Positions 8,328 to 48,227 of a stretch of 64,000 nucleotides of DNA are shown piece by piece. Origin of the DNA: a virus; the IMG/VR virus record IMGVR_UViG_3300049617_000207, positions 1-64,000 of that record. One strand, 5' to 3'. The notes beneath the pieces were generated by a model that worked only from the letters and a program-made list of their open reading frames with translations, ran no database searches and was not told the DNA's origin. Each line of letters opens with the position of its first letter. Position 1 is the stretch's first letter. Position numbers and translations under genes: made by a program.

Positions 8328-10541
8328 TTACGCCGCGTCCGTCTCGTCGGCGAGGTCGTCCTCGTCGTCGGCGAGGCCCGTGGGCTTGAAGACCGCGACC
8401 GCCTCTTCGGGGGCGCCCGTCGTGATCGCACCGGACTCGTCTATCGTATACGGCACCTTCCAGGTGAGCGCCTCATCGTTGCAACGCACATAGGCGTGCT
8501 CGGGGAAGGTCGCGACGACGCTGAGATAGTGCGGCGCGTCGCCCCCGACCGGGGAAGGCGCGTAGTTGGACGAGCCGGTCTCGCTGTAGGTCGGCGGATC
8601 GGAGCAGCCGGAGCCTGCGCAGACGGGGCCGCGGATGCGCTGCAGCATCTCTTCGTAGGAGCCGGGGAAGTCGGTGAGGGCATCGCCGGGCGCCGGGTCG
8701 TCGCCCTTCATGATGTCGCCGATGGTGAGCGCCTTATCCCACGGGCCATGCTCCATGTCGTGTCCGATTTGCACCTGATCGCGGAGCGACTTCCCCGCGA
8801 GCGGCGAGGGCTTCTTGCCGGTCGACGCCGCCTTGGTTTTTTCGTGGTGATCGGTCACGCGTTGGAGCAGGCCCTTGAGGCGCGAGGTGTCGAGGTCCTT
8901 ATTCCCGTGCGCGACGTTCGAGCTTCCGAGATGCGTGCCGTCGTGCGCGTAGGCGTGCCGCTCGTGCGAGTATTTCGCGGTTTGGTGTTTCGAGACGTGC
9001 CCGATGTGGTTGCCCTGGTCGTCGTGCAGGTGATAGTTCTCGTGCATCGTCTTGACCGGCTCGCCCGAGAAGCGGTCGACATGCGCCTCTTTTTTGCGCG
9101 CGACTTTGATGCCGTACTTCGTGCCGGACGATGATTTAATCGTGCCGCTGTACCCGTTGCCCGCGGTGAATTGGCCGGTCGAGGGATCGTGCGCCGTCCC
9201 CTCGCCCTTCATGATGTCTTCGAGCGTAAGCGGCATGATGTCCCCTATCGTTAGCGATTTTTCGTATCCGGCGGCCTCGCGCGCGGTCTGCGTTGACTTA
9301 CTGCGTTTGATCGTACCGCGGAAATGTTCGAGCGCCACGGCGCGCGCGGCGTGTTCGGTGTGCTCCGCATCCGGCCCGCCGGGAGAGTTTACCGACGTGA
9401 CGACCTTCGGCTTTTTGCCCCCGGTGTAGACGCCCTCATGGATCGTACGCCCGCGGTCGGCCTTGTGCTCGACGTGGCCGACCTGGGTGCCTGTATGATC
9501 GTCGTGGACGGTGACGCCCGTCGCGTGCGGCTTGAAGGTGTAGGATCGCTTGGTTTTCGCAAGCGTCATCCCGCCGCCCGCGTGATTGATCCGCTTCGTG
9601 CCCGTCGCGACGAATTTGCCGTCCTCGCCGTGCGCGTGCCCGGCATCGTCGGCCTTCATGATGTCCGCAAGCGTGAGCGACTTCTCGGTAGGCGGCGTGT
9701 AACCCGTATCGGTGAATCCGGCCGCGCGCGCCTCCTCGACGTGCTCGGGCCGGTACGTCTTCTTTGCGGTAAAGGTGACGTCATTCGGATGTAAAGCGGC
9801 AAGCCTCTTGATTGACGCTGCGGCCTTGTTCGCCTTCTTGTGAGACTTGATCGCAGCGTTGATTTCTAAACTACGGTCGCGCCCGTCGTTGCGGTGTAGT
9901 GCGACGGCAAGCGGTACGGCTGCGTGCTCGGCCGTTACGTGCATACCTTTGGCGAGTGCCTGTTTAATATACGCTTCGTGCCGCGGGCCGCCGCACGCGT
10001 CGAAAATAAACGACGATCCCTCGTCGAGCGCCTTCGCGAGACGGGACTTCGCGATGTGGCTCGACAGTTCGTGCGTGATTCCGTCGGCGAAGTGCTCGTG
10101 ATCCGCCAGGCCGTCCTTCTCGCGCAGGTACTTGCCGAACGAGGCGACGTCGGGAAACTCGGTATTCTCCCGCACGTGAGCTTCGAGCGCGGCGCGAAGC
10201 TCCGGCGGATAGGCGGCAAGCTCCGCGTTCGTGCGCGGGCCGGACGAACCGTAGCCCTTGCCGTCACCTTCGCGGTTGCTATAACCGGGGATCGACTGTT
10301 TGATCGCGTCGGGCTCGATGACGTTGGTGATACCGAGCCGCTCGGCCATCTCTTTTGCCAGGCGGCCCTTGCCGCTGCCCGCGCCGCCGATAGTAAAGCC
10401 CGCGTGACGAATCGGCGCCGTCTTGGGCGCCGCCTTCGCAGGCTTCGCGCCGCCGCCGGTGTTGCCAAAGCGGCCGTCGGCGCCGTGCTCGTGGCCGACC
10501 GCGTCGCGTGCCTTAAAAATGTCTTCCAGCGTCCGATGCAA
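8328..10541 (-). CDS. modular head-cargo polyprotein 2 with zeta-toxin-like P-loop kinase
   Basis: GGAGSGKG Walker A, IEPDAIK, HELSS, FIFD; repeated (EK)xLTxxDIMK linkers; AAGGAGG RBS. Confidence 0.75.
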   Translation of the reverse strand: MHRTLEDIFKARDAVGHEHGADGRFGNTGGGAKPAKAAPKTAPIRHAGFTIGGAGSGKGRLAKEMAERLGITNVIEPDAIKQSIPGYSNREGDGKGYGSSGPRTNAELAAYPPELRAALEAHVRENTEFPDVASFGKYLREKDGLADHEHFADGITHELSSHIAKSRLAKALDEGSSFIFDACGGPRHEAYIKQALAKGMHVTAEHAAVPLAVALHRNDGRDRSLEINAAIKSHKKANKAAASIKRLAALHPNDVTFTAKKTYRPEHVEEARAAGFTDTGYTPPTEKSLTLADIMKADDAGHAHGEDGKFVATGTKRINHAGGGMTLAKTKRSYTFKPHATGVTVHDDHTGTQVGHVEHKADRGRTIHEGVYTGGKKPKVVTSVNSPGGPDAEHTEHAARAVALEHFRGTIKRSKSTQTAREAAGYEKSLTIGDIMPLTLEDIMKGEGTAHDPSTGQFTAGNGYSGTIKSSSGTKYGIKVARKKEAHVDRFSGEPVKTMHENYHLHDDQGNHIGHVSKHQTAKYSHERHAYAHDGTHLGSSNVAHGNKDLDTSRLKGLLQRVTDHHEKTKAASTGKKPSPLAGKSLRDQVQIGHDMEHGPWDKALTIGDIMKGDDPAPGDALTDFPGSYEEMLQRIRGPVCAGSGCSDPPTYSETGSSNYAPSPVGGDAPHYLSVVATFPEHAYVRCNDEALTWKVPYTIDESGAITTGAPEEAVAVFKPTGLADDEDDLADETDAA

Positions 10542-11727: not shown

Positions 11728-14700
11728 TCAAGCAGTATAGGCCGACGTTGTCGGCATCGCGACCGTCGCGCCACTCGCATCGTGAAGGAGTGGGTCGGTT
11801 GCCGTCCGCTTCACGCCGAATAGTTCGGCGAGCTTTGCGGCCGTTTCTTTGCGCACTTGAGCAAGTCCACGGTTAAATTCTCCCCACTTGGTCGGGTAGC
11901 CGGTTTCATCCGTCACGCTCCCGGCGTTGTCGAGCACGATTTCCGAAAGACCGATTGCCCAATCCTCTTGGTAGTCGCCTTGCAGCGTATCGTAATTGTC
12001 GCCGGGGGCGGGGCGCTCGAAGTCTTTGGAGTTGTACGCGTGGTCGGTGATGAAGGCACGGATCGAGCGCATCGCGTGCCCGGTGCCGTCGGCGTTATGC
12101 ACGATTTTTACGTTCGGCTCGGTGGTCGTGCCCTTGACCTTCGCGCGCATCCACTTGTTAAACGCCTTCATCTCCTTGCCGAGCGAGCTTCGCGACATCG
12201 CGTGGCAGTATTCGTGGATGAGCGTCCGGTCGCTCCAATCGTGTCCGTTGAAGCTCCCTTTATTCCAGAGACCGACGCCGACCGTCACGAGGCCGGTCTG
12301 CGGAAACGCGAAGCCGCCGTACGGCGTGCCCTCTTTCATGTGATGAAACGAGAGCGTCGTGCCCATGCCGCTGCGCGTCATCGGGCCGAACGTATCGGTG
12401 AGCGTCTTGTCGACGTGCTCGATTTCCGCCATCGAGAGCCCGTGGACGCCGGTGTAACCCTCCTGCGCGCCCAATCTCCCCGCCCCGCCCCATAAAGGAA
12501 ACGCGTCCTCGCCCTCGTCGATGAGGTTTGTGTTGTGAATAAACATCATCGCCTCGCGCGCGACGACCCGGTCAAACGCCGCGTTATGGACGCTGCCGAG
12601 TTTCTTGACCGCCTCGGCCACGGTCTTTGGCTTTATTTCGGCGATGCGGGCGGCGATGTGGCGGGTCTTGCGAATGTAGTCGCGCCGAGCGTCGTCGTCG
12701 GCAAGGTTCTTAATTTTTTGCAGGCGCGCGCTCTCGTAATACATATTCGGAGACTGCGCACGTGCCGCGCCGCGCGACTGCGGGGTCGCGTCCGAGTTGT
12801 TGAGCGTCCCCTCCGTTAAGCTCACGGAGTATCCAACATTACTTTGTAGAAGCGTAATATAGTCTTTTAGTCTATCCGCAGGAACGCTCGCGAGCGCCTC
12901 ATCGCTATCCCACCGATGCAGGCCGTCCGCGGCGGGAGTCCATGTGTCGTGCCCGCCGTAAGTAACAGGCGGGATGGTCTCGCCAAAGAACCGCGCAATG
13001 GGCGAGTATTCGATAGGATTCATCGGCGCACGCGCGCGCGACATTTCGCGGTCGTTGCGCTTCGGTTTGTCGGACTTCGGTTTTGCCGTCGAAGCGGGCG
13101 CCTCGAATTGAAATTCGGTCGCCCATCCGTTTTCGAGCCGACCCATCCCATCGTCGCCGTACGCGGTATCGTTGCAGCGAGTCGGCTTGCCGAATATCGT
13201 AATAGCGGCGTCTAGCTCGCGCTTGTTCGTGAAGCCGTCGATGTTGAGGCGCACGGCACCCTGCTTCTTCTTCGCCTCTTTGGAGAGTGCGGAAAAGACG
13301 TCGTGCAGCGCGCTCTCGTTGCTTGCATAATACGCCTTAAACTTGCAATAGAGACTTTGGTCGACACGCTGGACACTCGCGTCGCCGCTATCGCCTACGT
13401 CGAGATGGACGACGCCGTCGTCGTCGGTGGTCCGCTTGACGCTCGGCCCGGCCGCTGCCGGAGCGGCGGCAGGCTCCGGCTCGTCATCATCGTCGCCCGC
13501 GGCGGCGCCCCCGCCGCCCTGCGAGACGAAGCGGCCGTCGTTGCCGTGATCGTGGCCGACCTCGTCGCGCACCTTCCGCATGGTCGGCGCGGCGGCGTAG
13601 TGATTGCGCACGGCCTCGGTTGCGCTCGCACGATCCGAGAAGATGCGGTCCCCGTGCCCGAGCGCGCCTTTGACGGTGTGCAGGCCCGCGTTGTCCTTCT
13701 GCGGCTCAATCGTGCCGGTGACACCACACTTCGGGCACACGACGACGGCCGAGCCCTCGGGATCGCCGACGGTGAGCGGCACGATGCGGACGTGCCCGTT
13801 GCCCTCATCGGTGCCCTCGGGCTCTTGCACGTGCGAGACGTGTTCGGCCGAGACCGACGCAACGGCGCCCGAGCCCGCGCTATGGTAGGTGACGACGTGG
13901 CCTCCCAGGAGACTCGTGTCCGTGCGCAGCGCGCGCCCGGCGTCGGTCGGCATCGCCATGCCTGCCGCGATGTGCGGCGCGACGTGGATCGCATCGCCCG
14001 GCCGGACCTGTGCGAAGGACTTCGCGAGCGCGCGCGTGGCCGCCGCGTGGACGCGCGAGAGCGGGGTTGCCATCTTTTCCGTGTCCTTCTCTTCCGGCTT
14101 CCAGGCCATCGCTTCGTGTGCGGGCTTCCATAGGTCGTGGTATTCGTTTTGGACGCCGCCGGAGTAGTCCGTCGCGAAGCGCGTGAGCTTGGGATCGAAC
14201 CCCGCGATGACGTCGAGCGGGGCGTCGCGATAGACTTCCCATAACCGGCGCATGTGCTTTTGACCCGCGAGCGACTCGCGCGCTAAGGCGATGTCCTCTT
14301 TCGAGGCGGGCCTTCTCGGCGTGGTCCCTCGGCGGCTGTAGTCCGGGGTGAGGTAGTCGGGTGCCGAGATTTCGTCGAGGTGCTCCTCCCGGTGTGCGAT
14401 TTCCCGGTCGATGTTCTTGAGATGCTTCGGGGCGGCGAGCTTCGCCTTATGCGCGCGGTCGGCATCGGAGACCATCTTTTTCGAGGTCGCCATGTCCATG
14501 CCGTGACCCGCGAGGAGTTTTTGGGCGCACCCGCTTCCGACCAGGCCGCCCGGCTCGACTTCGTAGACGACGTGATGGAGCTTGCCGCATCGGTCGCACT
14601 CGCGCGGCTCGGTGGAGTCGTTGCCTTCGCCCTTCTTCTCTTCATCGGTGCGCAGGTCGTAGCGCGCGACGATCCGCGGCGGCTTGTCGGCCTTTGCGCC

Positions 14701-18630: not shown

Positions 18631-19541
18631 CGCGGCACGTCGTACCGGCTGCTCACGTCGAGCGGGTCGCCGACTTTGTACGGAAGCCAGGCACAACGGC
18701 ATTGCGGGTGCAGAGGAATTGTCGCAACCCAGGCAGTTTGTTTAATACCGTAGTTACTGCGCCCGATAAGATCGGCCACGCGATAGACCTTACCGTCGAT
18801 AAGTTCGAGACAACGGTCGCAACATTTATCATCGTGTGCCGACGACCCTATTGTTAGCTCTAAGCCCGCGTCCTCGAATTCGCGCAGCCGTCCGACGCTT
18901 TCGGCGCGCGACGTTTCCGTGATCGCGATGCGTCCCCACGCCGTTTCGCGGTCCTTTAGCTCGTTCTCGATCCGGCGCGAGATGACTTTTGGGTTCTCCC
19001 CGTTTTGCATGCCGTCGATGAGCATGCGCCGCAGGTCGGCCTTGAGGTCGTTAAACGAGTCGTCGATTTCGTTAAAGGTCGTATGTTCGAGGAATCGTAT
19101 CGCGCGCCCATCGGTAGGCAGGAGCGGCCGGTGCAACGGTTTCGCGAGCGCCTCGCTCGCAAGCATTTGCCCAAGCGCGTACGCGCGCATGGGATGCGTC
19201 GCTAACTCGAAAAACGCGTGCCGCCGCCATTCCTCGATGGGCTCGTCCATTTGCCAAGGGTCTATCCCCTCCCACGATTCATGTTTGTCGAAGAGTTGGT
19301 TCACAAGTTCGGTGACGCTCGCGAACGCGCGCTTCTGCCCGGCCGTGAGCGCGTCGTAAAACGCCTTCTCTTGTCGGCCGATTTCAGGATCGCCGTGGTT
19401 GCCGGGGAATTTCCCCTCGGCCTTCGCGAGCGTGCGCTCGGGGTAGCCCCATATCCGCTGCATGGTTTTCGCGAGCGCGCGCGGGTTGGGCGAGCCCGTA
19501 AGGACGCAGAGCGCAAATTCCGCTTCGAGGGCGGCGTGCAA
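18627..19541 (-). CDS. MuF/SPP1 gp7-like minor head protein
   Basis: RIAITETSRA, CDRC..LIDGK, PLHPQCRC. Confidence 0.88.
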   Translation of the reverse strand: MHAALEAEFALCVLTGSPNPRALAKTMQRIWGYPERTLAKAEGKFPGNHGDPEIGRQEKAFYDALTAGQKRAFASVTELVNQLFDKHESWEGIDPWQMDEPIEEWRRHAFFELATHPMRAYALGQMLASEALAKPLHRPLLPTDGRAIRFLEHTTFNEIDDSFNDLKADLRRMLIDGMQNGENPKVISRRIENELKDRETAWGRIAITETSRAESVGRLREFEDAGLELTIGSSAHDDKCCDRCLELIDGKVYRVADLIGRSNYGIKQTAWVATIPLHPQCRCAWLPYKVGDPLDVSSRYDVPR

Positions 19542-19550
19542 GGCGGCCCG

Positions 19551-19919
19551 CTAGGGCTGGAAGCCGTCGACGGAGGGCGTCGCGAGCGGCGCGGCCGTGA
19601 TCGTTGCGGGTACGCCGGAGAGCGCCAGCGTGTCGCCCGTCTTCGAGGTGAGCTTATACTGCGTTGGCTTCCCGGCGATGCCTGCGATGCTCGGAAGCAA
19701 GCCCGGCGGCCCTTGCGCGAGGATGCGGGCGTCCGCGGCGGGATCGTGGATGCGGGCAACGATGGTGAAGCCGGAGACGAACGAGCCGGGGGCGCCTTCG
19801 AGGACGCCCGGCTCGTGTTCGAGCACGAGCCCGACGACGACGTCGTTGATGTTCGCGAGCGCGGTGCCGTTCTTGGACAGGGCGCCGGTCGTGAGGTTGA
19901 GGGCGTACGCGTCTGCCAT
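19551..19919 (-). CDS. hypothetical protein
   Basis: GGAGG RBS; late-like motif at 19976. Confidence 0.65.
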   Translation of the reverse strand: MADAYALNLTTGALSKNGTALANINDVVVGLVLEHEPGVLEGAPGSFVSGFTIVARIHDPAADARILAQGPPGLLPSIAGIAGKPTQYKLTSKTGDTLALSGVPATITAAPLATPSVDGFQP

Positions 19920-19995
19920 GTTGCCTCCGTGCTGCTGGCTTGGTCCGGCTCCTTTCCCCGCTACACCGCGGGCGGCCCGCTAGACTTCCGAACAC

Positions 19996-20051
19996 GAAAA
20001 AGGACCCCTTACGGGGTCCTCGGGCTTTGGTTCCGGTCGCGTTGCCAACAC
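19996..20051 (-). ncRNA. putative small antisense RNA to the adjacent tRNA
   Basis: TTGCGC-N18-TATAAT promoter (20085-20056); 5' part complementary to the tRNA D/anticodon arm; AGGACCCC-GTAA-GGGGTCCT-TTTT terminator. Confidence 0.6.
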
Positions 20052-20099
20052 GCGCATTATACCCGAGGACACCGTAAAGGCGCAAGCCCCTTGCCTGCT

Positions 20100-20168
20100 T
20101 GGAGCGGACGGGGATCGAACCCGTACAGTCATGTTGGCAACACGACCGGGCTACCAAGCCACCGCCCC
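20100..20168 (-). tRNA. atypical tRNA: GCC (Gly) anticodon, Ala-type acceptor stem, short D arm, no encoded CCA
   Basis: Manual fold GGGGCGG/CCGCTCC-A; GCT-TGGT-AGC; GTCGTG-TTGCCAA-CATGAC; ACGGG-TTCGATC-CCCGT. Confidence 0.75.
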
Positions 20169-20194
20169 ATCCTTATTTGTTTCGACGCGAGCGA

Positions 20195-22084
20195 CTAACC
20201 CCCCGCCATCTTTGAGAGCGCCCGCGCGAGCCGCTGCACTTCGTTGACGGCCTTGGCGACGGCGGCCGGTGAGCCCGGCTTCGTATCGGCGCCGGGCGGC
20301 TTGGGTGGCCCAGGCGGCGCGTTATCCTCCTGGCCGGGCACGCCCGGCTTCTCCGGCGGCTTGGGCGGCTCGCCCGGCTTCGGCGCCCCTGGCGCACCCG
20401 GTGCCCCGCCGGGGGGCGCCTGCGACGGATCGGCGGGCGGCGGGATGTTGGGCAGGTCCTCGACCTTCACGAGCCCGGCGCCGGACATCACGAGCGTATC
20501 CCCACCGGCCACGGGCGGGAGCTTCTCTTCCTTGCGGCCTTCGTTCACCGTCATGATCCCGCCGGAGATGAGCGCGGTGATCCGCCCGGCGCGGTCGATA
20601 AGGTCGTCGTCGGACTGATCCTCGAATTCGAGCTTCACGTCGCCGAACGGGAAGCACGCGACCGTGTGACCGTCGAGTGAGTTGACGTCCTCGGGGTCGG
20701 TGCGCAGCCACATTTTCCCGCGCAGGACGCCGCCGTTGAGTTGCTCGGCGAGTCCCTTTATCATCGAGTTGACGCCGCGGCTCTGTGTGAGTCCAGACTG
20801 ATTCTCCGCGGTCGCCTTGGCTTTAATGTCTTCGGTGAATCCGATGTCGCCCAGGCCCAGGCCGTACGCCGCGCATTTACGGTTGGCCCAATACTTGAGC
20901 TTTTCGATAGTGGGCGAGTCCTTGTCGCCGCTGCTTTGGATCGGCATGAAGCCCTTGACGCCGTCTTTGTTCGCGACGAAGATGACGCGGTGCTGGCCGC
21001 TGCTTACGCGTTCGTCCCACGCGCGCTCGACCGAGAGCTTCTCGCCCGGCCCGACGTTCGGCCCGAGGTCGAAGATGCCGTAGGGCATGTTATTGTTTGC
21101 GAACCCGTCGAGCAGGTAGGCGTCGCCATAGAGCGAGCCGACCATTTGCTCGACGAGCGATTCGAGCGGCGACTTCCCATAGCCGTCGTTTTGCGGATTG
21201 ATCGAGAGGTACGTTAGCTCGTCGCGGTTATAGAACGCGCGGACCTTGGAGTCGACGCTCCAATCGTAGCCGACGTTTGGGGGCGAGGGCATGTTGCGGT
21301 CTTTGGCGCGGTAGAGCGTTATCTGTTCGCCCGGCAGGTTATAGATTTCGCCGAGCTTCCCATCGAGTGTCGGGTTCTTCACGAGGACGGCCGCATCGTA
21401 GAGCGTGAGGTCGTCGATGAGCAGGTCGAGGAGCGAGCGCAGCGTGGTTTGCGTTGGGTTCGGGCGCATGAGCAGGGCGTTGACGGGTGCGACATGCGAG
21501 AGCGCAATCGCTTCGTGGGCGGCGACCACGTTCTCGAAGAATCCGCGAATCTCGGGTGCCCGGCTCGGGTCTTCGCCGCCTTTGATGACCTCGCGCAGTT
21601 TATCTTTCAGCACGCCCGCGGCTTTATGGTAAATGTCCAGGCTCATCGCCTGCGGGACGAATTCAAGGTCGAGCCCCGGCAGCGCCAGGTTCACGAGCAC
21701 TTTCTTTTCCCATTGGTCGAGGTCGGCTTTAACGGTGTCGAGGTCCGGCACGATTTTCCAGGCCATATCGCCGATAGCCATGCGGATCGTGCGCCGGATC
21801 GCCATGATGATGTCGTCGCGTTCGGCGAGGCTCTTGAGCGTTTGCATCGTAATCGCGGAGTCGCGGCGCTGCGGACTCTCGGCGATGCCACGCTGCTGCA
21901 GGGCGATGAGCGGTTGCAAGCCTTGATCGTGCTGGCCCTTGCGCGGCTCGATGCGACTTGGCCCCGAGGCTTTGGCGAGGAACGAGCCGACGCGCTTGGC
22001 GATACCTCCGGCGGTACGCGGGCGCGTCACCGGCACGAGCGCGCGCACCGCGCGGGGCTCGACGTAGATCGGGTCTAGGTCCAT
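20195..22084 (-). CDS. portal protein
   Basis: LLMRPNP, GYGKSPLE, PYGI, GIMTVNEGR..LPPVAGGD; start uncertain (ORF open to 22276). Confidence 0.88.
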   Translation of the reverse strand: MDLDPIYVEPRAVRALVPVTRPRTAGGIAKRVGSFLAKASGPSRIEPRKGQHDQGLQPLIALQQRGIAESPQRRDSAITMQTLKSLAERDDIIMAIRRTIRMAIGDMAWKIVPDLDTVKADLDQWEKKVLVNLALPGLDLEFVPQAMSLDIYHKAAGVLKDKLREVIKGGEDPSRAPEIRGFFENVVAAHEAIALSHVAPVNALLMRPNPTQTTLRSLLDLLIDDLTLYDAAVLVKNPTLDGKLGEIYNLPGEQITLYRAKDRNMPSPPNVGYDWSVDSKVRAFYNRDELTYLSINPQNDGYGKSPLESLVEQMVGSLYGDAYLLDGFANNNMPYGIFDLGPNVGPGEKLSVERAWDERVSSGQHRVIFVANKDGVKGFMPIQSSGDKDSPTIEKLKYWANRKCAAYGLGLGDIGFTEDIKAKATAENQSGLTQSRGVNSMIKGLAEQLNGGVLRGKMWLRTDPEDVNSLDGHTVACFPFGDVKLEFEDQSDDDLIDRAGRITALISGGIMTVNEGRKEEKLPPVAGGDTLVMSGAGLVKVEDLPNIPPPADPSQAPPGGAPGAPGAPKPGEPPKPPEKPGVPGQEDNAPPGPPKPPGADTKPGSPAAVAKAVNEVQRLARALSKMAGG

Positions 22085-22291
22085 GCAGGTCCGCGGTCCC
22101 TTCCTTGGGTGCTGCCAGGTTCGCCTTTTGGCCCGCTTCTTCCGTTCGCCCGCCGGGCGGGGAACACCTCCGCGCAGAAAATAATGCGAAGAGGTGCCCC
22201 GAACCATTGACTTTATGACGCGGGCGGCGTATTGTAGCGGGAGAGGTCGCCCATAAGCGGCGGCCCACCCCGACAAAAGGAAACGAACATC

Positions 22292-24510: not shown

Positions 24511-24540
24511 TTGACTTTCCAGCGCGCACGGAAGTATAAT
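24511..24540 (+). promoter_or_regulatory. repeated sigma70-like phage promoter
   Basis: TTGACT-ttccagcgcgcacggaag-TATAAT; related copies at 11702, 27429, 28876, 47926, 48554, 49789, 52205, 52499, 56441, 62816, 63182. Confidence 0.8.
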
Positions 24541-47881: not shown

Positions 47882-48227
47882 GATGTCGGGGTGTGCTTTC
47901 TGCGGGCCTTCGCTCGCGACTCGCTTATCGTACACCCTGCGCGCTGGAAAGTCAATGCGACAGGTGCCCCGTTATCGCCGCTTCCACAGGTGGCACGTCT
48001 TCGCGTGCCAAGGTCCGGCCGGAAGCCCGTTCGCCGAGTAGCACGCACACTTGCTCATCCGCGCGTGCCCTCGAAGCACATGCAGTCGCCGCCCGCGGCG
48101 AGTGCCCCGCACCGGCAATAGCTCCCATCGGGGTGCCGGTTCGCGTCGTAGCGGGGATCGAGGCTCGGGCGCTGCGCATCGGAGCAGTCGCAGCCCAAGG
48201 GGCGGCAGGTCGGGCACTCGTCGTCCA

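Follow-up and report, generated by a model that had tools for sequence, protein, structure and literature searches.

Antisense RNAs control mRNAs and replication primers, and in a number of these systems, including RNA I/RNA II of ColE1, CopA/CopT of R1 and hok/sok, pairing is nucleated at a loop. In the RNA-only (type VIII) toxin-antitoxin pairs SdsR/RyeA and CreT/CreA, both partners are RNAs, and CreT acts via the tRNA pool. The phage locus that we describe here resembles ColE1, R1 and hok/sok in that a short, presumably constitutive antisense RNA, which is expected to start on a loop and then extend, lies beside its target. In contrast, the target in the phage is non-coding, tRNA-shaped and encoded on the same strand as its partner, whereas theirs is an mRNA or a replication primer made from the opposite strand. 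With the type VIII pairs the locus shares the all-RNA composition, but the putative phage toxin would itself be a tRNA, and there are no Cas proteins. In a literature survey of incomplete coverage, we found no description of this module, nor of a dedicated antisense RNA that targets a tRNA or tRNA mimic.

Parts of the locus also recall tRNAs of hybrid identity and T-box elements or attenuators. Natural allo-tRNAs combine G3:U70 with GCG or UUA anticodons, and three natural G3:U70 tRNAs with non-alanine anticodons have been tested for acylation by AlaRS in E. coli (PMC5389517); anticodon variants of tRNA-Ala have been described as well (PMC10543346; PMC12084884). The phage tRNA shares with these an alanine acceptor identity joined to a non-alanine anticodon, but none of the hybrid-identity tRNAs has been reported with a partner antisense RNA, and their bodies are 8/4, 9/3 or canonical. 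Like T-box elements and attenuators, the locus has a segment that pairs with a tRNA anticodon beside a competing terminator and antiterminator. Unlike a T-box, it has no Stem I platform and no T-box pairing with an NCCA end, and the pairing spans ~27–31 bp rather than 3–4. A T-box riboswitch was rejected, since Rfam gave no T-box match in positions 19000-21000.

The locus lies in a window of 64,000 nt, the whole stretch of DNA that we analyzed (positions 1 to 64,000 of virus record IMGVR_UViG_3300049617_000207). The phage genome is complete (96,014 bp, with direct terminal repeats and 65.8% G+C), and its host probably belongs to the culturable phylum Gemmatimonadota. All parts of the cassette are contained in a non-coding stretch that runs from the portal stop codon to the ATG of the next late gene (Table 1). 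L002, L004 and L005, three portal relatives with 55-63% identity, have no tRNA at the junction and only 8-20 nt between the portal stop and the start of the next gene (MADAY...), and ARAGORN found no tRNA in the 13 closest (L002-L014) of 19 portal-related loci. Since the junction is this short in the relatives and none of the 13 scanned loci has a tRNA, the 275-nt stretch is, as judged from these comparisons, an insertion private to this phage within an otherwise conserved gene junction.

Searches for other forms of the insertion covered reads, contigs and a phage collection. Four DNA read runs returned the source contig and unrelated short matches only, with no empty-site or variant form. Exact-pattern scans (the tRNA; the tRNA plus the antisense loop; the D arm plus the loop) found no related cassette in viral contigs and gave seven matches in metagenome contigs, all of them chance matches that lacked tRNA context, while BLAST against the phage collection gave nothing useful for related cassettes. 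Thus no close phage relative carrying the cassette was found, and the covariation described below rests on a family in CPR bacteria (Patescibacteria), not on the phage lineage. We also considered that the tRNA gene might be an attP core or remnant, which was ruled out by the absence of an integrase and by the full length of the tRNA; profiles for tyrosine (PF00589) and serine (PF00239) recombinases had no match in the complete 96-kb genome.

Table 1. Features of the insertion and of the two genes that flank it, in window coordinates.
Feature	Positions	Strand	Remarks
Portal gene	20195..22276	minus	First gene of late block; PHROG portal 1.3e-27
Non-coding insertion, 275 nt	19920..20194	minus	Portal stop codon to ATG of next late gene; contains all cassette parts
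Compact Ala-type tRNA or look-alike, 69 nt	20100..20168	minus	ARAGORN; Rfam tRNA 33.3 bits
-35-like hexamer TTGCGC	20080..20085	minus	TTG invariant at same slot in 24/24 CPR cassettes
Antiterminator 5' strand, CCUUUACGGUGUCCUCGGG	20062..20080	minus	In promoter spacer; 17/19 complementary to 20024-20006
-10 hexamer TATAAT	20056..20061	minus	TAnnnT at same slot in 24/24 CPR cassettes
Predicted small RNA, ~53-55 nt	19997..20051	minus	Antisense 5' end to terminator U run
Antisense segment	20023..20051	minus	Core 20051-20033 against tRNA positions 20-38; 20032-20023 against D hairpin
Antiterminator 3' strand	20006..20024	minus	Overlaps terminator 5' arm, loop and part of 3' arm
Intrinsic terminator	19997..20021	minus	GAGGACCCC-GUAA-GGGGUCCUU; 9-bp stem, GUAA loop, five U
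Conserved late gene, 122 aa	19551..19919	minus	Downstream of insertion

The tRNA at 20168-20100 is the only one in the phage genome. Its acceptor stem has G1-C72, G2-C71, G3:U70 and G4-C69 with A73 as discriminator and no encoded CCA (tRNA genes of Gemmatimonadota likewise lack it), and its body combines a D hairpin of 4 bp (GGCU-UGGU-AGCC), an anticodon stem of 7-8 bp and a variable region of 2 nt. The anticodon loop, UUGCCAA with the anticodon GCC, is a canonical 7-nt loop with U33 and A37, the same as in the tRNA-Gly(GCC) of the host phylum. Gemmatimonadota tRNA-Ala(UGC) shares the 5'-terminal 8 nt and the 3'-terminal 25 nt of the phage tRNA exactly but differs from it in the center, and 9 of the 15 genome matches to the 3' 22-mer are from Gemmatimonadota. 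As read from its sequence, the phage tRNA is an alanine identity set (G3:U70, A73) and a glycine anticodon in a non-canonical compact body. The glycine identity set of bacterial tRNAs is U73, C2:G71 and G3:C70. We rejected a bacterial tRNA-Gly(GCC) identity, since the phage tRNA has A73, G2:C71 and G3:U70 and the host tRNA-Gly(GCC) genes start with GCGGGAA (identity sets are listed in PMC9976931). ARAGORN called no pseudo-tRNA on the plus strand.

Upstream of the tRNA, the best promoter score was only 6/12. Lacking a promoter-like site and following the portal gene, which opens the late block, the tRNA is presumably transcribed together with that gene and hence made late. Right after the tRNA (window 20098-20082) there is a hairpin, GCAGGC-AAGGG-GCUUGC, which matches genome positions 65183-65166 at 17 of 18 nt and may be a recurring motif. 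We also note that in three Gemmatimonadota loci (L039, L040, L044) tRNA-Ala(GGC) adjoins tRNA-Gly(GCC), and that these two anticodons are mutually reverse-complementary.

A first-pass annotation of this DNA had described, just downstream of the tRNA on the same strand, a promoter followed by a complement of the tRNA and a GNRA-capped terminator with a T run. All of these elements are present: TTGCGC-N18-TATAAT at minus-strand positions 20085-20056, the complement with 17 of 19 Watson-Crick pairs and two G:U pairs, its continuation into the D arm after a 3-nt bulge, and a terminator with a GUAA loop (20021-19997). The antisense core GTGTTGGCAACGCGACCGG (20051-20033) is the reverse complement of CCGGTCGTGTTGCCAACAT in the tRNA save for two A-to-G changes, which account for the two G:U pairs, and past the bulge the small-RNA segment AACCAAAGCC pairs with GGCUUGGU of the D hairpin, for a total of ~27-31 bp. 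The rest of the predicted small RNA folds into a terminator hairpin behind a weakly structured 5' part.

Complementarity of this extent does not arise by shuffling. None of 1000 dinucleotide shuffles of the insert (275 nt) reached 17/19, and the highest 19-nt inverted match among them, 16, came up four times, whereas the insert itself has two independent inverted repeats of 17/19. The computed duplex between the small RNA and tRNA nucleotides 1-46 has an energy of -48.8 to -55.1 kcal/mol (with 36 or 40 nt of the small-RNA 5' end), compared to -29.9 kcal/mol for the best non-cognate small RNA, and the heterodimer of small RNA and tRNA was favored by 16.7 kcal/mol. A second, degenerate antisense copy in the 5' UTR of the next gene (CGTGTT...CCGGACCAAGCC), which includes a perfect 9-nt D-arm complement at 19944-19936, was rejected, since 1030 of 2000 shuffles in one comparison and 183 of 2000 in another scored at least as high. 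Rfam, run on positions 19000-21000 with E up to 1, matched the tRNA only and had no family for the small RNA.

The promoter elements are of unequal quality. The hexamer TATAAT, which ends 5 nt ahead of the antisense start, occurs only four times in the 96-kb genome (both strands). Two of these sites are preceded by TTG at a distance of 18 nt, the length of the spacer here, and one of the two is a clear member of a promoter family of the phage. TTGCGC matches TTGACA at three of six positions, a consensus scan gave no call, and the site falls outside the phage's own family of ~17 copies of TTGACT-ttccagcgcgc-TAnnnT.

That family is of one design, with TTGACT, a spacer ttccagcgcgcagggyg (17-18 nt) and TAnnnT. 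Copies are found on the minus strand at 47955, 48583, 49818, 52233, 52526, 62842, 69768, 70627, 72221 and 11731, and on the plus strand at 24511, 27429 and 28876; a GGTGCCCC box or the complement of one stands 7-10 nt ahead of most of them. This design shows that E. coli-like -35 and -10 signals are read by the host polymerase.

We scanned first 121 and then 146 CPR genomes with a pattern for compact tRNA-likes with an alanine acceptor, and retrieved the flanks of the matches. The scan yielded many Ala-acceptor tRNA-likes of 64-70 nt. For each copy, we identified the best 14-nt complement to the central region of the tRNA-like, with a cut-off of at least 12.5/14. In 24 of 32 copies this complement was on the same strand, 102-115 nt past the tRNA start; the phage partner scored 13.5 at +118. 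Moreover, all 24 had the same succession of elements: the tRNA-like, a gap of 0-15 nt, a -35 hexamer (TTGACA, TTGAAA or similar), a spacer of 16-18 nt, a TAnnnT hexamer, a further 2-8 nt, the antisense segment, another 20-35 nt and an intrinsic terminator. The phage cassette matches this layout element for element. In contrast, among 120 viral loci with compact Ala-type tRNAs, which we used as a control, there was no such partner RNA: only three had a 14-nt complement of at least 12.5 within 200 nt, and the sole one near +100 was the D arm of a neighboring tRNA.

The phage and CPR cassettes are alike in the alanine acceptor (G3:U70, A73), in the compact body (64-70 nt; 69 nt in the phage) and in the 4-bp D hairpin, whose loop is CGGT, TGGT or TGGA in CPR and UGGU in the phage. 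In both, a small-RNA unit with a TTG...TAnnnT promoter begins 30-45 nt after the tRNA-like on the same strand, the 5' end of the small RNA is antisense to the 5' half of the tRNA-like, an intrinsic terminator follows, and the whole cassette is a short insertion between genes whose order is conserved elsewhere. The phage copy differs in that it has no promoter-like site for its tRNA-like, carries a canonical anticodon stem-loop (GCC), is matched by the Rfam tRNA model rather than by a tmRNA-type domain, has an acceptor and T arm identical to those of Gemmatimonadota, has an additional antiterminator, and sits in a late operon. It also differs at the 3' end, where it reads CTCCA and then AGC, with no encoded CCA, whereas most CPR copies read CTCCA-CCA.

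Although the cassette sequences vary, each small RNA fits its own tRNA-like. We judged covariation by duplex energies and permutation, and found that cognate duplexes averaged -39.5 kcal/mol, compared to -19.9 kcal/mol for non-cognate ones, that the cognate small RNA was the best partner in 22 of 25 pairs (19 of 20 non-redundant pairs), and that none of 20,000 permutations of the partners reached the observed mean energy. Thus the covariation that the first-pass annotation had proposed looking for is present across the family. The paired ranges span positions 1-38 of the tRNA-like and 1-39 of the small RNA in a common register, in which the small RNA from nucleotide 1-3 onward faces tRNA positions up to 33-39: its first nucleotides pair at the loop, and the helix extends from there in the direction of the tRNA-like 5' end. 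In the phage, the small RNA reaches 3 nt deeper into the loop than do those of CPR, such that one structure line cannot fit all rows of the alignment.

Sequence models were less discriminating than this layout. Rfam identified only sub-threshold tmRNA-type tRNA-like domains in the CPR tRNA-likes, and a covariance model built from them (R1) failed to separate the phage copy (43.4 bits) from ordinary host tRNA-Ala (38.5-40.8 bits). The homology of the phage and CPR cassettes rests on shared architecture, without discriminating sequence similarity. Most CPR members lack a regular anticodon stem-loop, and several mutually orthogonal copies are found per CPR genome. In the alignment of CPR tRNA-likes (A4), the consensus of the central loop is UU-NN-CA, in which the C and the A hardly vary; should such loops decode at all, all copies would read GNN codons (for Gly, Val, Asp or Ala). 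This consensus also accommodates the phage loop, UUGCCA (window 20140-20135).

Before the comparative data, we had given an antisense-gene reading about a quarter of our confidence, because the -35 is weak, the promoter is unlike the phage family, and a switch acting in cis also fits the structures. Since 24 independent CPR cassettes keep both the promoter slot and the covarying complementarity, TTGCGC-N18-TATAAT is a likely promoter and 20051-19997 a likely small-RNA gene. We now consider it probable that minus-strand positions 20085-19997 constitute a gene with a promoter, an RNA of ~54 nt and an intrinsic terminator, antisense to the adjacent tRNA-like, and we regard the promoter as most likely real. 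The separate antisense RNA of ~55 nt, made from a housekeeping-type promoter, that had been proposed from the phage locus alone thus gains support from the same order, spacing and register in 24 CPR cassettes. Together, the tRNA-like and the small RNA appear to be one copy of a recurrent and apparently undescribed two-RNA module.

If both RNAs are transcribed and meet in the cell, we envisage the following sequence of events. The phage tRNA-like would derive from the portal transcript, and the small RNA from its own sigma-70-type, housekeeping promoter. The small RNA would nucleate on the exposed anticodon loop (UUGCCAA with UUGGCAA, seven fully complementary nucleotides), and pairing would then zip through the anticodon stem and the D hairpin to ~27-31 bp. 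The duplex would unfold the tRNA-like, with loss of the L-shape. An unfolded tRNA-like would not be charged by AlaRS and would have no use or other activity; alternatively, the duplex might be a substrate for an RNase.

The second 17/19 repeat of the insert bears on how such a unit could sit in an operon. The conserved 122-aa late gene downstream needs either read-through of the small-RNA terminator or another source of transcription. Because the antiterminator 5' strand is located in the promoter spacer, it is present only in transcripts that started upstream. The computed fold with the antiterminator has an energy of -51.0 kcal/mol; blocking the 5' strand, which lets the terminator form in its place, gives -36.0 kcal/mol. 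In predicted folding of growing read-through transcripts, the antiterminator helix was the best structure before the terminator 3' arm was made, and its final advantage was ~8-15 kcal/mol, depending on how the terminator state was constrained. In contrast, transcripts begun at the small-RNA promoter lack the spacer, and their predicted fold is the terminator. Upstream-started transcripts would thus pair the spacer with the terminator and read through into the head genes, whereas those started at the small-RNA promoter would terminate. The antiterminator is found in the phage copy only, the 24 CPR cassettes being without it, and would fit an adaptation to life in an operon in which the downstream head genes are still transcribed. 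Just after the terminator (19999-19981), CGGAAGTCTAGCGGGCCGC matches genome positions 57141-57123 at 18 of 19 nt and may be a recurring short motif.

The same structures could be read as a switch that acts only in cis, with alternative pairings within the late-operon transcript and no separate small RNA. One state would combine the duplex of the tRNA arm and its complement with the terminator, and the other the cloverleaf with the antiterminator, coupling the folding or processing of the tRNA to read-through into the head genes. The four complementary segments are ordered A, B, A', B' on the RNA, as in attenuators, such that the two pairings cross and the two helices are mutually exclusive; the weak -35 of the small-RNA promoter also fits this reading. 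Pairing in cis within the precursor, which had been raised at the outset as a possible block to maturation, is indeed thermodynamically possible: the lowest-energy fold of the full precursor is the cis duplex with the terminator (-93.1 kcal/mol), and the alternative of cloverleaf (-35.0 kcal/mol) and antiterminator (-51.0 kcal/mol), at -86 kcal/mol, is ~7 kcal/mol less stable. However, if there were no small RNA, it would be a coincidence that a perfect TATAAT, preceded by TTG at a distance of 18 nt, stands 5 nt ahead of the antisense segment, and a canonical promoter occupies that slot in 24 CPR cassettes. Moreover, since the CPR cassettes are without the antiterminator, switching in cis is not the core function of the module. 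We regard this reading as unlikely.

A small RNA that neutralizes a toxic tRNA has also been considered, as an RNA-only toxin-antitoxin or timing system. An alanine-charged tRNA with a glycine anticodon would misread GGC and GGU as alanine, to the harm of the cell, and the constitutive small RNA would neutralize it until overtaken by late transcription. The acceptor stem exactly matches that of host tRNA-Ala, the loop is a canonical 7-nt loop with U33 and A37, natural G3:U70 tRNAs with non-alanine anticodons exist (PMC5389517), and yeast tRNA-Ala with the anticodon GCC was among the most growth-reducing of the anticodon variants (PMC10543346). In addition, the several mutually orthogonal copies per CPR genome resemble toxin-antitoxin families. 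On the other side, decoding on the ribosome is uncertain for a tRNA whose D hairpin has 4 bp and a loop of 4 nt, whose anticodon stem has 7-8 bp and whose variable region is 2 nt long, and most CPR members do not have a regular anticodon stem-loop at all. Furthermore, since the complete 96-kb genome encodes no tyrosine or serine recombinase, the role in lysogeny or addiction that the first-pass annotation had offered as a rationale is without basis, there being no lysogeny to stabilize. We consider a toxin-antitoxin or timing role quite unlikely for the phage copy. Equally unlikely is the fullest form of this idea, in which the phage RNA would be a working Gly-to-Ala mistranslating tRNA, charged by AlaRS and held off by its private antisense RNA until late titration, and the family would be mobile among ultra-small bacteria, soil bacteria and phages.

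Finally, a non-functional rearrangement scar, in which the inverted partial duplications stem from capture of a tRNA gene, is hardly credible: no phage relative with the cassette offers a comparison for purifying selection in the lineage, but a single inverted duplication is insufficient as an origin for two independent 17/19 complements whose pairings cross (A, B, A', B'), and the same layout and covariation recur in 24 other cassettes.

With a small-RNA gene antisense to a tRNA-like as the preferred reading, the phage copy links a module seen until now mostly in uncultured, ultra-small bacteria to a phage whose host belongs to another phylum, a culturable one that is probably Gemmatimonadota. 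This copy is among the minority of the family with a loop fit to decode, and it illustrates how such a cassette can live in an operon, by means of a built-in antiterminator. As a compact unit of 275 nt it could be cloned, which brings the function of the whole family within reach of experiment.

We noted a few other compact RNAs with an alanine acceptor in the course of this analysis. Two Gemmatimonadota loci (L065 and L066, from genomes G290 and G365) contain compact Ala tRNA-likes (GGGGCGGTACTGGTGTACCCGGTG...), which form a tandem pair in L066; ~49 nt upstream of these there is a weak complement and then a GAAA-capped hairpin. A viral contig of ~99 kb (L022, positions 12425-12508) has an 84-nt RNA that is Ala-acceptor tRNA-like or resembles a tmRNA tRNA-like domain. 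Its 3' 22 nt are the same as in the phage tRNA, ARAGORN made no call, Rfam gave 17 bits only for tmRNA, and there are hairpins downstream, one of which is GUGGGCAACAC. Another viral contig (L168, minus strand) has a compact Ala tRNA-like at 9538-9606. Positions 1-19 of this RNA have a complement in its own 3' trailer, 8 nt past the end, and its anticodon arm has one at +237; the locus may represent the module in another arrangement.
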